Shown here: positions 2,092 through 7,324 of the stretch, in pieces
How positions within the stretch are numbered: position 1 is the stretch's first letter
Layout: every line of letters begins with the position of its first letter
NCBI RefSeq assembly: GCF_003334405.1
Contig: NZ_QOWM01000006.1
Reading direction: 5' to 3' (one strand)
Length of the DNA stretch: 64,000 bases
DNA from: Escherichia coli
GTDB taxonomy: Bacteria > Pseudomonadota > Gammaproteobacteria > Enterobacterales > Enterobacteriaceae
The notes under the pieces: model-generated
What the model was told of the DNA's origin: nothing
Database searches by the model: none
What the model saw: the letters and a program-made list of their open reading frames with translations, nothing else
Translations under genes and position numbers: made by a program

Positions 2092-2164
2092 GTGAGGCAC
2101 TCGGTTATGAATTACCGCGATGCTACAATGTGGCGCGAAGAATGTTAACCCTCTGGAGCGTTTT

Positions 2165-4594
2165 GTGTCGTCGTTGCCCGTTGCTGCCGTCTTACCTGAA
2201 TTACTTACCGCTCTCGATTGTGCGCCGCAGGTATTATTAAGTGCGCCGACCGGGGCCGGGAAATCAACCTGGCTGCCGCTGCAACTGCTGGCGCATCCCG
2301 GCATTAACGGGAAAATTATCCTGCTGGAGCCGCGTCGTCTGGCGGCGCGTAACGTCGCGCAACGGCTGGCGGAGCTGCTTAACGAAAAGCCAGGCGATAC
2401 CGTTGGCTACCGGATGCGTGCGCAAAACTGCGTCGGGCCGAATACCCGCCTGGAAGTGGTTACCGAAGGCGTGCTGACGCGCATGATCCAGCGTGACCCG
2501 GAACTGAGCGGTGTTGGACTGGTGATCCTTGATGAATTTCATGAGCGCAGCTTGCAGGCGGATTTGGCGTTGGCGCTGTTACTCGATGTGCAACAAGGTC
2601 TGCGTGATGACCTTAAACTGCTGATTATGTCGGCTACCCTGGACAACGACCGCTTGCAGCAAATGCTGCCAGAAGCGCCTGTCGTCATCTCAGAAGGGCG
2701 CTCGTTTCCGGTTGAACGCCGTTATTTACCGCTGCCCGCGCATCAGCGTTTTGACGATGCCGTTGCGGTAGCCACCGCTGAAATGCTGCGTCAGGAAAGC
2801 GGATCATTACTGTTATTTTTACCTGGCGTCGGAGAAATTCAGCGTGTGCAGGAACAACTGGCTTCGCGCATCGGCAGTGATGTATTGCTCTGCCCGCTGT
2901 ATGGCGCGTTGTCGCTGAACGATCAGCGAAAAGCGATCCTCCCGGCACCGCAAGGGATGCGCAAAGTGGTGCTGGCGACCAATATTGCTGAAACCAGTTT
3001 AACCATTGAAGGTATTCGTCTGGTGGTGGATTGTGCCCAGGAGCGTGTGGCGCGTTTTGATCCGCGCACGGGGCTTACGCGACTGATTACTCAACGCGTT
3101 AGCCAGGCATCCATGACGCAGCGTGCCGGGCGCGCCGGGCGTCTGGAGCCGGGTATCAGCCTGCATTTAATCGCCAAAGAACAAGCAGAACGCGCCGCGG
3201 CGCAAAGTGAACCGGAGATCTTACAAAGCGATCTTTCCGGTTTGCTGATGGAATTACTGCAATGGGGATGCAGCGATCCGGCGCAGATGAGCTGGCTGGA
3301 TCAACCGCCAGTAGTGAATCTACTGGCCGCGAAACGTCTGTTACAAATGCTGGGGGCACTGGAGGGTGAACGGCTTAGTGCGCAAGGGCAAAAAATGGCA
3401 GCGCTGGGTAACGATCCGCGTTTAGCGGCAATGCTGGTTAGCGCGAAGAACGACGACGAAGCTGCTACCGCGGCAAAAATTGCCGCCATTCTCGAAGAGC
3501 CGCCACGGATGGGCAATAGTGACCTGGGCGTGGCGTTTTCGCGCAATCAACCAGCCTGGCAGCAACGTAGTCAGCAACTGTTAAAACGCTTAAACGTACG
3601 TGGCGGTGAGGCAGACAGTTCGCTTATCGCGCCGCTACTTGCCGGGGCGTTTGCCGATCGCATTGCTCGTCGCCGTGGGCAAGATGGACGCTATCAACTG
3701 GCAAACGGCATGGGAGCGATGCTCGATGCCAACGACGCGCTAAGCCGCCACGAATGGTTGATCGCACCGTTATTATTGCAGGGCAGCGCCTCGCCGGATG
3801 CGCGGATTTTACTGGCGCTGCTGGTCGATATTGATGAGTTAGTACAACGCTGCTCGCAGCTGGTACAGCAGTCTGACACTGTGGAGTGGGATGACGCGCA
3901 AGGTACGCTGAAAGCCTGGCGTCGGCTACAAATCGGTCAGTTGACGGTGAAAGTGCAGCCGCTGGCGAAACCGTCAGAAGACGAGTTGCATCAGGCGATG
4001 CTTAATGGCATCCGTGATAAAGGTTTAAGCGTGCTCAACTGGACGGCGGAAGCGGAACAGCTACGCTTGCGTTTGTTATGCGCCGCAAAGTGGTTGCCGG
4101 AATATGACTGGCCAGCGGTTGATGATGAAAGTTTATTGGCAGCGCTGGAAACGTGGCTGCTGCCACATATGACTGGCGTACATTCACTACGCGGCCTGAA
4201 ATCACTCGACATTTATCAGGCACTACGCGGATTACTTGATTGGGGAATGCAGCAACGTCTGGATAGTGAATTGCCTGCGCATTACACTGTGCCGACGGGA
4301 AGCCGGATCGCCATTCGTTATCATGAAGATAACCCGCCCGCGCTGGCGGTGAGAATGCAAGAGATGTTTGGCGAGGCCACCAATCCGACGATCGCCCAGG
4401 GGCGCGTGCCGCTGGTGCTGGAGTTGCTTTCACCTGCCCAAAGGCCATTACAAATCACACGAGATTTGAGCGCCTTCTGGAAAGGAGCGTACCGTGAGGT
4501 GCAAAAAGAGATGAAAGGGCGTTATCCCAAACATGTCTGGCCGGACGACCCGGCAAATACTGCACCGACGCGACGGACGAAAAAGTATTCGTAA
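2165..4594 (+). CDS. hrpB: ATP-dependent RNA helicase HrpB (DEAH-box)
   Basis: ORF 2120..4594; Walker A APTGAGKST and DEFH box (ILDEFHERS); start placed at in-frame GTG 2165 to give the 809-aa form (start choice uncertain). Confidence 0.88.
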   Translation: MSSLPVAAVLPELLTALDCAPQVLLSAPTGAGKSTWLPLQLLAHPGINGKIILLEPRRLAARNVAQRLAELLNEKPGDTVGYRMRAQNCVGPNTRLEVVTEGVLTRMIQRDPELSGVGLVILDEFHERSLQADLALALLLDVQQGLRDDLKLLIMSATLDNDRLQQMLPEAPVVISEGRSFPVERRYLPLPAHQRFDDAVAVATAEMLRQESGSLLLFLPGVGEIQRVQEQLASRIGSDVLLCPLYGALSLNDQRKAILPAPQGMRKVVLATNIAETSLTIEGIRLVVDCAQERVARFDPRTGLTRLITQRVSQASMTQRAGRAGRLEPGISLHLIAKEQAERAAAQSEPEILQSDLSGLLMELLQWGCSDPAQMSWLDQPPVVNLLAAKRLLQMLGALEGERLSAQGQKMAALGNDPRLAAMLVSAKNDDEAATAAKIAAILEEPPRMGNSDLGVAFSRNQPAWQQRSQQLLKRLNVRGGEADSSLIAPLLAGAFADRIARRRGQDGRYQLANGMGAMLDANDALSRHEWLIAPLLLQGSASPDARILLALLVDIDELVQRCSQLVQQSDTVEWDDAQGTLKAWRRLQIGQLTVKVQPLAKPSEDELHQAMLNGIRDKGLSVLNWTAEAEQLRLRLLCAAKWLPEYDWPAVDDESLLAALETWLLPHMTGVHSLRGLKSLDIYQALRGLLDWGMQQRLDSELPAHYTVPTGSRIAIRYHEDNPPALAVRMQEMFGEATNPTIAQGRVPLVLELLSPAQRPLQITRDLSAFWKGAYREVQKEMKGRYPKHVWPDDPANTAPTRRTKKYS

Positions 4595-4604
4595 GGTTGG
4601 TTTT

Positions 4605-4693
4605 CTCCCTCTCCCTGTGGGAGAGGGCCGGGGTGAGGGCATCAGCGCGCACGTTCACCCTCACCCTAACCCTCTCCCTCAAGGGAGAGGGGA
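4605..4693. repeat. GC-rich compound palindromic repeat: three consecutive hairpins (CCCTCTCCC/GGGAGAGGG; GGGTGAGGG/CCCTCACCC; CCCTCTCCC/GGGAGAGGG)
   Basis: Perfect 9-bp inverted repeats at 4607..4627, 4631..4666 and 4670..4691 in the hrpB-mrcB spacer; resembles enterobacterial intergenic repeat families, exact family not assigned. Confidence 0.6.
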
Positions 4694-4789
4694 CCGATCG
4701 AGCACAAATTTTGAGAGATATCTTCTTCTGTCTTGTAACAGAAGAACAGAAAATCGGGCTTTTGCGCCTGAATATTGCGGAGAAAAAGC

Positions 4790-7324
4790 ATGGCCGGGAA
4801 TGACCGCGAGCCAATTGGACGCAAAGGGAAACCGACGCGTCCGGTCAAACAAAAGGTAAGCCGTCGTCGTTACGAAGATGACGATGATTACGACGATTAT
4901 GATGACTATGAGGATGAAGAACCGATGCCGCGCAAAGGTAAGGGCAAAGGCAAAGGGCGTAAGCCTCGTGGCAAACGCGGCTGGCTATGGCTACTGCTAA
5001 AACTGGCTATCGTTTTTGCCGTGCTGATCGCCATTTACGGCGTTTATCTCGATCAAAAAATTCGTAGCCGTATTGATGGCAAGGTCTGGCAACTGCCTGC
5101 GGCAGTTTATGGCCGAATGGTCAATCTTGAGCCAGACATGACCATCAGCAAGAACGAGATGGTGAAGCTGCTGGAGGCGACCCAGTATCGTCAGGTGTCG
5201 AAAATGACCCGTCCTGGCGAATTTACCGTGCAGGCCAACAGCATTGAGATGATTCGCCGTCCGTTTGATTTCCCGGACAGTAAAGAAGGACAGGTGCGCG
5301 CGCGTCTGACCTTTGATGGCGATCATCTGGCGACGATCGTCAATATGGAGAACAACCGTCAGTTCGGTTTCTTCCGTCTTGATCCGCGTCTGATCACCAT
5401 GATCTCTTCGCCAAACGGTGAGCAGCGTCTGTTTGTGCCGCGCAGTGGTTTCCCGGATTTGCTGGTGGATACTTTGCTGGCGACAGAAGACCGTCATTTT
5501 TACGAGCATGATGGAATCAGTCTCTACTCAATCGGACGTGCGGTGCTGGCAAACCTGACCGCCGGACGCACGGTACAGGGTGCGAGTACGCTGACGCAAC
5601 AGCTGGTGAAAAACCTGTTCCTCTCCAGCGAGCGTTCTTACTGGCGTAAAGCGAACGAAGCTTACATGGCGCTGATCATGGACGCGCGTTACAGCAAAGA
5701 CCGTATTCTTGAGCTGTATATGAACGAGGTGTATCTCGGTCAGAGCGGCGACAACGAAATCCGCGGCTTCCCGCTGGCAAGCTTGTATTACTTTGGTCGC
5801 CCGGTAGAAGAGCTAAGCCTCGACCAGCAGGCGCTGTTAGTCGGTATGGTGAAAGGGGCGTCCATCTACAACCCGTGGCGTAACCCAAAACTGGCGCTGG
5901 AGCGACGTAATCTGGTGCTGCGTCTGCTGCAACAGCAACAGATTATTGATCAAGAACTCTATGACATGTTGAGTGCCCGTCCGCTGGGGGTTCAGCCGCG
6001 CGGTGGGGTGATCTCTCCTCAGCCAGCCTTTATGCAACTGGTGCGTCAGGAGCTGCAGGCAAAACTGGGCGATAAGGTAAAAGATCTCTCCGGCGTGAAG
6101 ATCTTCACTACCTTTGACTCGGTGGCCCAGGACGCGGCAGAAAAAGCCGCCGTGGAAGGCATTCCGGCACTGAAGAAACAGCGTAAGTTGAGCGATCTTG
6201 AAACTGCGATTGTGGTCGTCGACCGCTTTAGTGGTGAAGTTCGTGCGATGGTCGGAGGTTCTGAGCCGCAGTTTGCGGGCTACAACCGTGCGATGCAGGC
6301 GCGTCGTTCGATTGGTTCCCTTGCAAAACCAGCGACTTATCTGACGGCCTTAAGCCAGCCGAAAATCTATCGTCTGAATACGTGGATTGCGGATGCGCCA
6401 ATTGCGCTGCGTCAGCCGAATGGCCAGGTCTGGTCACCGCAGAATGATGACCGTCGTTATAGCGAAAGCGGCAGAGTGATGCTGGTGGATGCGTTGACCC
6501 GTTCGATGAACGTGCCGACGGTAAATCTGGGGATGGCGCTGGGGCTGCCTGCGGTTACGGAGACCTGGATTAAACTGGGCGTACCGAAAGATCAGTTGCA
6601 TCCGGTTCCGGCAATGCTGCTGGGGGCGTTGAACTTAACGCCAATCGAAGTGGCGCAGGCATTCCAGACCATCGCCAGCGGTGGTAACCGTGCACCGCTT
6701 TCTGCGCTGCGTTCGGTAATCGCGGAAGATGGCAAAGTGCTGTATCAGAGCTTCCCGCAGGCGGAACGCGCTGTTCCGGCGCAGGCGGCGTATCTGACAC
6801 TATGGACCATGCAGCAGGTGGTACAACGCGGTACGGGTCGTCAGCTTGGGGCGAAATACCCGAACCTGCATCTGGCAGGGAAAACAGGGACTACCAACAA
6901 TAACGTAGATACCTGGTTTGCGGGCATTGACGGCAGCACGGTGACCATCACCTGGGTCGGCCGTGATAACAACCAGCCGACCAAACTGTATGGTGCCAGC
7001 GGGGCAATGTCGATTTATCAGCGTTATCTGGCTAACCAGACGCCAACGCCGCTGAATCTTGTTCCGCCAGAAGATATTGCAGATATGGGCGTGGACTACG
7101 ACGGCAACTTTGTTTGCAGCGGTGGCATGCGTATCTTGCCGGTCTGGACCAGCGATCCGCAATCGCTGTGCCAGCAGAGCGAGATGCAGCAGCAGCCGTC
7201 AGGCAATCCGTTTGATCAGTCTTCTCAGCCGCAGCAACAGCCGCAACAGCAACCTGCTCAGCAAGAGCAGAAAGACAGCGACGGTGTAGCCGGTTGGATC
7301 AAGGATATGTTTGGTAGTAATTAA
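4790..7324 (+). CDS. mrcB: Penicillin-binding protein 1B (bifunctional glycosyltransferase/transpeptidase)
   Basis: ORF 4775..7324 trimmed to ATG 4790 ([14 protein letters not shown]..., 844 aa); GT51 motif [12 protein letters not shown]; SxxK motif in SIGSLAKP; single TM helix after basic/acidic N-terminus. Confidence 0.94.

Follow-up and report, generated by a model that had tools for sequence, protein, structure and literature searches.

The BoxC family of repeats has been known since the 1990s. It is said to have been described by Bergler in 1992 and by Bachellier in 1996, and the PIT elements reportedly go back to Hoyne/Maher in 2000. We know of no link between BoxC and a RAYT-type transposase, gyrase, or IHF. 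In Holder 2015 (PMC4666352), the triplex motif TMECO is given as the former BoxC or PIT element, and five K-12 loci are named at which a type A and a type B copy form an inverted pair, the hrpB-mrcB spacer being one of them. A survey of Escherichia coli repeat families cites BoxC from the literature as a 56-bp element in 32 copies, models it at 50 bp, and recovers it as a structured family with an RNAz P of 0.99. In one E. coli genome, the survey found 22 BoxC copies versus 301 copies of PU-BIME. For REP hairpins, it reports that they protect upstream mRNA against 3' exonucleases.

We analyzed a window of 64,000 nucleotides of E. coli DNA (contig NZ_QOWM01000006.1), in which a 195-bp spacer between hrpB and mrcB holds a pair of such repeats. 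The window is K-12 DNA. By BLAST, many E. coli chromosomes, that of MG1655 among them, match positions 4595-4705 at 100% identity, and adding 159,940 to a window position converts it to NC_000913.3 numbering. The stop codon of hrpB (4592-4594, + strand; K-12 164,534) lies 12 nt 5' of the first C-block, and the mrcB start codon ATG (4790-4792, + strand; K-12 164,730) lies 98 nt 3' of the element. Table 1 of Holder 2015 (PMC4666352) lists TMECO no. 1 as CCCTCTCCCTGTGGGAGAGGGCCGGGGTGAGGGC (164,547-164,580, sense, type B) and TMECO no. 2 as CCCTCTCCCTTGAGGGAGAGGGTTAGGGTGAGGGT (164,631-164,597, antisense, type A); in sequence and coordinates, these are exactly window positions 4607-4640 and 4691-4657. 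Kaplan 2016 (PMC5100583) places HPGQ 5 (midpoint 164,569, +) and HPGQ 6 (164,608, -) between hrpB and mrcB. Because sequence and coordinates match both tables exactly, the element is, by its sequence, a BoxC repeat pair that was already known. Our preferred reading, to which we assign a probability of about 0.6, is that the pair provides a stable hairpin that acts as an exonuclease barrier and is otherwise a rearrangement-prone, dispensable dispersed repeat.

Each BoxC repeat unit is built of a C-block, a loop, a G-block, a second loop, and a second G-block, and here two copies in inverted orientation make up an 85-nt imperfect palindrome. Unit 1, located by a regex scan at 4607-4640 (+), reads CCCTCTCCC-TGT-GGGAGAGGG-CCG-GGGTGAGGG-C and is of type B (loop 2 = CCG). 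Unit 2, at 4657-4691 (-), reads CCCTCTCCC-TTGA-GGGAGAGGG-TTA-GGGTGAGGG-T and is of type A (loop 2 = TTA), so that the pair combines one A unit and one B unit as is the rule for inverted pairs. Both units show the three-block pattern of a C-block CCCTC(T/G)CCC, a G-block GGG(G)AGAGGG, and a G-block GGGTGAGGG, and both retain the extended flanks of a unit of ~50 to 56 bp. The 16-nt spacer between the units (4641-4656) is ATCAGCGCGCACGTTC; it opens with CATCAGCGCGCAC, the tail that type B units usually carry at their 3' side and that is also found behind the type B unit at ilvC-ppiC. With its flanks, the composite spans 4601-4705, with TTTTCT at the type B side and GACCGATCGAGCAC at the type A side, and these flanks travel with the element, recurring at other K-12 copies. 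A G3-N3-G3-N3-G3-N3-G3 tract in unit 1 (4619-4639, +) matches the G4 regex and is HPGQ no. 5; the same tract supplies both the purine strand and the third strand of a proposed intrastrand triplex. The mirror G-quadruplex/triplex tract in unit 2 (4658-4678, -) is HPGQ no. 6. When the triplex is modeled in the purine motif, with the third block antiparallel to the purine strand of the hairpin, 9/9 triads are of a permitted type.

The original prediction described three tandem hairpins with perfect GC-rich stems, the first and third sharing their arms. The stems themselves are as predicted, within 4607-4691. Stem 1 pairs CCCTCTCCC (4607-4615) with GGGAGAGGG (4619-4627) over 9 bp across a 3-nt loop, and stem 2 pairs GGGTGAGGG (4631-4639) with CCCTCACCC (4658-4666) over 9 bp across an 18-nt loop. 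Stem 3 pairs CCCTCTCCC(T) (4670-4679) with (A)GGGAGAGGG (4682-4691), either as 10 bp with a 2-nt loop or as 9 bp with a 4-nt loop. The arms of stems 1 and 3 are identical, and the middle stem is the pairing between the third blocks of the two inverted units. This arrangement is not due to chance, because the 21-nt motif, which occurs once in the window, was found in 0 of 100 shuffles of the window and because the RNA fold of 4595-4705 (111 nt) reaches -74.2 kcal/mol, whereas shuffled sequences average -44.2 (z = -8.1). The opposite strand folds at -67.4 kcal/mol.

What did not hold is the architecture. An inverted-repeat scan showed that the arms are also complementary in a nested fashion, so that a single long hairpin is an alternative. 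For 4605-4693 as RNA, the nested hairpin was calculated at -66.2 kcal/mol and the three hairpins at -53.5 kcal/mol, a difference of 12.7 kcal/mol; as DNA, the values were -33.0 and -29.0 kcal/mol. On account of the nested complementarity and the lower energy, the ground state is predicted to be one long nested hairpin. Three tandem hairpins were rejected as the ground state, being 12.7 kcal/mol less stable as RNA; as a cotranscriptional intermediate, the three-hairpin fold is plausible. The RNA folding that the original prediction had proposed gave a different shape: two inverted three-block units form one palindrome. The three-hairpin picture also overlooks the published triplex and G-quadruplex folds.

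That the element belongs to a dispersed intergenic repeat family had been suspected, and a search for further genomic copies proposed; the family is BoxC, and two papers list this copy by its coordinates. With a 111-nt query, matches were found in 5,332 of 5,426 complete E. coli genomes, at a median of 11 BLAST places per genome (maximum, 26). In K-12, we verified 14 units with the A/B loop signatures at 8 loci, namely the 2 units here and 12 further ones at 7 other loci, which were fetched by coordinate and are all intergenic. Flanks common to the K-12 loci are TTTTCT before type B, GTGCTCnnnCGGTC before type A, and CATCAGCGCGCAC after type B. An Rfam scan of 4000-5400 in E-value mode returned sub-threshold hits only (at most 29 bits against gathering thresholds of at least 58). 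These were to generic miRNA-precursor hairpins and were set aside as artefacts that any long GC hairpin produces; BoxC has no Rfam family. As a separate observation, TMECO 3 and 4, in the fetched stretches K-12 289,100-289,430 and 281,950-282,290, lie inside a region annotated as the cryptic prophage CP4-6, which is at odds with the published claim that there is no association with phages or mobile elements.

The element matters for gene calling. Mechanical ORFs run across it in both orientations (4533-4859, +; 4455-4814, -), as had been noted from the start, whereas no annotated ORF crosses it in NC_000913.3 or in 30 records among the 100% matches listed. In NC_000913.3, the hrpB-mrcB spacer is annotated without any feature. 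The longest mechanical ORF of hrpB is 2120-4594, compared with an annotated start at 2165, and that of mrcB is 4775-7324, starting at a TTG at 4775, compared with the annotated ATG at 4790. Both longer frames show the over-extension that is ordinary for an ORF caller.

With a 601-bp query that spans the spacer, the locus was recovered in all 5,426 genomes (5,426/5,426), in several length classes, of which representatives were fetched and aligned. K-12, HS, and O157:H7 carry the full composite, with no difference from K-12. The site is empty in UTI89 and KY1497, which are 102 bp shorter and read TGAAGAC-CAAAGCAAATTTGAG; the empty-site junction in UTI89 is TGAAGACCAAAGCAAATTTGAG. In N5D43, the element is collapsed, 64 bp having been deleted exactly between the direct copies of GGGAGAGGG (at 4619 and 4683), which leaves one perfect hairpin; Escherichia sp. 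E1V33 shows the same 64-bp deletion between the direct GGGAGAGGG copies in the K-12 orientation, and E. coli SCPM-O-B-8794 has a collapsed allele in the inverted orientation. In A11, a giraffe isolate, hairpin 1 is partly gone, the end of hrpB including the stop codon is replaced, and hrpB is flagged as a pseudogene. SWYHX138 has the K-12 length with the element reversed.

Junction-specific searches gave the empty site in 1,469 of the 5,426 genomes (27%), the inverted allele in 32 (0.6%), and the K-12-type left junction with a type B unit in ~3,270 (60%), the last count being slightly inflated since other loci reach the 80% coverage limit. Other rearranged forms account for the remaining ~12%. 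At least 80% of the 111-nt query was matched in 4,360 genomes, a figure that we did not take for an allele frequency, since BoxC composites elsewhere are able to cover that query; the junction-specific queries took its place.

In A11 (locus sequence L004, 190-300), the last ~23 nt of hrpB, stop codon included, are replaced by CACCGAG, which resembles a GCACCG type B flank, and the hrpB pseudogene is annotated without its C-terminus; gene conversion from another BoxC copy may have produced this end. When reverse-complemented, the SWYHX138 allele can be aligned to K-12 starting at TTTTCT and is perfect through the type B unit and the spacer segment CATCAGCGCGCAC; substitutions then appear in the type A unit up to GGGGAC, after which flank similarity fades. 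The whole composite lies with its flanks opposite to K-12 in SWYHX138 (L006, 236-376) and in E. coli E69 (L010, 3688-3800), and the type A unit of the inverted allele is of the "A mm" type. A simple recent in-place inversion was rejected for SWYHX138/E69, as the type A unit and the flanks differ at many positions. Because the type B unit and spacer are identical and the type A unit and flanks are not, the allele would stem from an old inversion with later conversion or else from a separate occupation of the site. Read on the opposite strand, the K-12 left flank GGTTGG becomes CCAACC and is then close to the CCAAACC at the empty site of E. albertii, a likeness that hints at an in-place inversion carrying along a few flank bases.

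The BoxC pair at hrpB-mrcB is dispensable, since 27% of E. coli genomes and the sister species lack it, and it is prone to rearrangement. Its alleles agree with and illustrate the higher variability around TMECO loci and the "palindrome effect" described in Holder 2015 (PMC4666352).

The same instability bears on a possible role at the DNA level, in which a triplex, G-quadruplex, or cruciform would stall replication or serve as a topological or regulatory switch and in which instability would itself be selected. All triads of the triplex are permitted, each unit carries a G4 motif, and many rearranged alleles occur at the locus; TMECO oligonucleotides form a triplex in vitro and variability is raised around TMECO loci (Holder 2015, PMC4666352), and a K+/Mg2+-dependent switch from G4 to hairpin is seen in vitro (Kaplan 2016, PMC5100583). 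Nevertheless, we hold such a role to be unlikely. In Holder 2015 (PMC4666352), in vivo DMS footprinting gave no triplex protection, and no association with gene class or ORF distance emerged. Plain slippage between the 9-bp direct repeats and collapse of the palindrome explain the deletions without a triplex, and adaptive instability is speculative.

The RNA evidence comes from 3'-end mapping, which the original prediction had suggested and which we took from public Term-seq data. Adams 2021 (PMC7815308) reports a curated 3' end at 164,636 (+), in the context ...CCCTCAAGGGAGAGGGGACCG and of the class "orphan," from cells in M63 glucose at an OD of 0.4. The end was called in 1 of 3 growth conditions and has a low read count (987 reads). 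In the window, it falls at 4696 (+), 5 nt 3' of the last G-block and of the palindrome and 94 nt upstream of mrcB, and we take it as the end of the hrpB 3' UTR. Coordinate prefixes spanning 164,550-164,679 gave neither a second 3' end nor a Rho region in these data.

Ends at the base of a BoxC hairpin were found at three loci in all (hrpB, lldD, and ppiC). Both of the other two have the geometry seen at hrpB. At ppiC, the end is at 3,959,467 (-), ...GGGAGAGGGTCGG; at lldD, it is at 3,781,065 (+), ...GGGAGAGGGGACC, inside a Rho termination region and with a low intrinsic-terminator score. At ~13 further BoxC loci, no 3' end was seen within the windows searched, and this absence is weak evidence because those windows were narrow (10 to 100 nt). 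In the ilvC-ppiC spacer (K-12 3,959,300-3,959,650), we also observed that the T-run (GAGTGTTTTCT) of a bidirectional terminator doubles as the conserved TTTTCT that precedes the type B unit on its 5' side. Term-seq 3' ends of ppiC fall both at this terminator (3,959,499) and at 3,959,467, which lies 4 nt beyond the BoxC hairpin.

By analogy to the REP hairpins that protect mRNA from 3' exonucleases, we propose that the palindrome in hrpB read-through RNA would fold into one extremely stable hairpin and that this hairpin would block 3'-to-5' exonucleases, leaving a stable hrpB mRNA 3' end 5 nt past its base; the end is observed, and the block is what we infer from it. Transcription itself would end by another route, e.g., by Rho, or would read into mrcB. 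In the DNA, the direct and inverted repeats inside the element make the site a hotspot of deletion, collapse, inversion, and loss, as the natural alleles show. The barrier is most likely an effect rather than a selected function. Since the pair is dispensable, it would be best described as a neutral or selfish dispersed repeat and not as a dedicated regulator of hrpB or mrcB. A modest benefit is possible because BoxC fills the same slot in several genera.

The original prediction had offered the element as a 3'-end stabilizer or terminator for hrpB. The end at 4696 directly supports the first; the second, under which polymerase would stop at the hairpin and mrcB would be insulated from read-through, appears quite unlikely. 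It would account for the very stable GC hairpin that begins 12 nt after the hrpB stop codon, as an intrinsic terminator should have, and for the sole mapped 3' end in the spacer, 5 nt beyond it. Yet a U-rich tract 0 to 2 nt after the stem is absent; the stem is followed by GACCGATCGAGCAC, with GACCGAUCGAGCAC after the hairpin, and a scan of 4400-4900 for promoter and terminator consensus found 0 terminator-like and 0 promoter-like sites. PIT elements showed neither promoter nor terminator activity in reporter assays of the Maher laboratory, as related in Holder 2015 (PMC4666352). More than a quarter of E. coli genomes (the 27% given above) and the nearest Escherichia species lack the element, and a Rho termination region, scoring low as an intrinsic terminator, surrounds the comparable end at lldD. 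In several Enterobacter and Leclercia orthologs, a separate canonical hairpin with a T-run follows BoxC, which argues against BoxC as the terminator there. Because Term-seq cannot separate termination from processing, a noncanonical termination at the BoxC hairpin is possible.

With the HrpB C-terminus as the query, 80 orthologous loci (L009 to L088) were recovered. The ~85 nt before the mrcB ATG, from TTTGAGAGAT on, are conserved across genera, and length varies only in the slot that runs from the hrpB stop codon to TTTGAGAGAT (window 4595-4709). E. albertii, E. whittamii, and Escherichia sp. MOD1-EC7003 have an empty slot of ~10 nt, and E. coli B2 strains were also seen with an empty one. 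In Salmonella and most Citrobacter, REP-like sequences fill it, whereas Enterobacter, Leclercia, Lelliottia, and several other Enterobacteriaceae carry 1 to 5 BoxC units there. A rough regex tally sorted the 80 loci into 19 with BoxC, 16 REP-like, and 42 short or other; the remaining 3 lacked the anchor sequence. Different repeat families thus occupy the slot in different lineages. Unit 2 is identical at 34/34 positions to the type A unit of a Lelliottia ortholog (L045). In other genera, a type B unit that adjoins the mrcB leader is in the (-) orientation, with the junction GGGAGAGGGAGAAAAC-AAATTTTGAGAG. Since this matches the rare E69/SWYHX138 orientation, the K-12 orientation looks derived. 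Modular expansions were also seen: Enterobacteriaceae RIT691 (L053, 3744-4254) has 5 BoxC units, including two repeats of a module of A(+), B(-), and a terminator-like hairpin, and the metagenome-assembled genome UBA3516 (L084, 3744-4124) has three 96-bp repeats of a B(-) unit plus a hairpin with a T-run.

Such a distribution could suggest a nonautonomous mobile element resembling a MITE or REP, which a putative enzyme would insert, excise, and flip in a preferred slot just downstream of genes, using the inverted units as terminal hairpins. Presence/absence polymorphism is clean, the opposite orientation, flanks included, is found in the 32 genomes and in E. coli E69, BoxC (1 to 5 units) occupies the hrpB-mrcB slot of 19 of 77 Enterobacteriaceae species, unit-specific flanks are kept between loci, and two inverted units lie at the composite ends in the manner of MITE terminal inverted repeats. 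We still regard mobility as distinctly improbable. A comparison of filled or inverted sites with empty ones (K-12, SWYHX138, UTI89, and E. albertii) revealed short A-rich ambiguities and no clear target-site duplication. We know of no partner transposase. The copy number per genome is low, and Holder 2015 (PMC4666352) found no association with mobile elements. The right junction GGGAGAGGGAGAAAA-C/G-AAATTTTGAGAG, common to Enterobacter and E69-type E. coli, would be explained equally well by ancient orthology and losses that recurred. A more specific and equally doubtful conjecture, drawn by analogy, is that BoxC composites would be mobilized or flipped in place by a putative enzyme that recognizes DNA hairpins, as RAYT transposases do with REP, and that they would prefer slots after stop codons; if so, this would explain the presence of 1 to 5 BoxC units in one slot across genera and of both orientations within Escherichia.

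The conserved mrcB leader (4707-4792, 85 nt) lies outside the BoxC element and contains a hairpin of its own, a 9-bp stem of TTCTTCTGT (4723-4731) and ACAGAAGAA (4738-4746). In this hairpin, four pairs change on both sides, and the column pair 24/33 is GC in 24, AU in 15, UA in 7, and GU in 4 sequences (n = 52). The hairpin has no Rfam match. Shimada 2014 predicted a promoter, TTGAGA-17-TGTAAC, in the leader; its -10 hexamer lies in the hairpin loop, which is variable, and lacks conservation. Judged from its covariation, the region may be an undescribed structured mrcB leader. That the BoxC pair is instead a protein-binding element, as had also been suggested, with a nucleoid protein or a regulator of mrcB or hrpB as the ligand, is very improbable, for although the motif and its loop sequences are highly conserved across copies and an RpoD-holoenzyme SELEX peak lies within the spacer, the SELEX-derived promoter maps to ~4711-4739 in the leader and not to BoxC, the accessible BoxC/TMECO/HPGQ literature reports no binding protein, and 27% of strains lack the element, in contrast to an invariant mrcB leader.

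Taken alone, the BoxC pair matters little, having been catalogued at least twice by coordinate. Its value for annotation is that mechanical ORFs cross it and that in one natural allele the stop codon of hrpB is lost. The Term-seq ends at the base of the hairpin at three loci point to a REP-like effect on mRNA 3' ends. Because empty, full, inverted, and collapsed alleles occur across genomes, the hrpB-mrcB slot is a convenient natural system for palindrome- and repeat-driven instability.

Among known systems, MITEs, ERIC/IRU, NEMIS/Correia, and YPAL elements resemble BoxC in being small, in their terminal inverted symmetry and presence/absence polymorphism, and in forming stable RNA hairpins when cotranscribed. 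BoxC differs from the MITE type in that neither a target-site duplication nor a cognate transposase has been identified and in that its unit also occurs singly. The likeness to an intrinsic terminator lies in a GC-rich hairpin just after a stop codon, the stem of which is followed within a few nucleotides by an RNA 3' end; the BoxC pair differs by the lack of a U-tract, by a stem far longer than is typical, and by the negative published assays. With BoxC/PIT/TMECO/HPGQ, the element is the same object, identical in sequence and coordinates and with the inverted A+B pairing as described for five K-12 loci, and no differences exist at the sequence level. The whole-element inverted allele, the same slot in other genera, and the Term-seq ends at the hairpin base were not found in the accessible parts of Holder and Kaplan. 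REP/BIME (PU) elements have in common with BoxC that they are dispersed, intergenic, GC-rich palindromes, often located in 3' UTRs. They differ in lacking the three-block homopurine/homopyrimidine design, and the copy number of BoxC is far lower; the E. coli slot has no REP-like match to a consensus of the GCCGGATG...CATCCGGC type. The likeness extends to RNA, as exonuclease protection by REP is the behavior that we propose for the BoxC pair.
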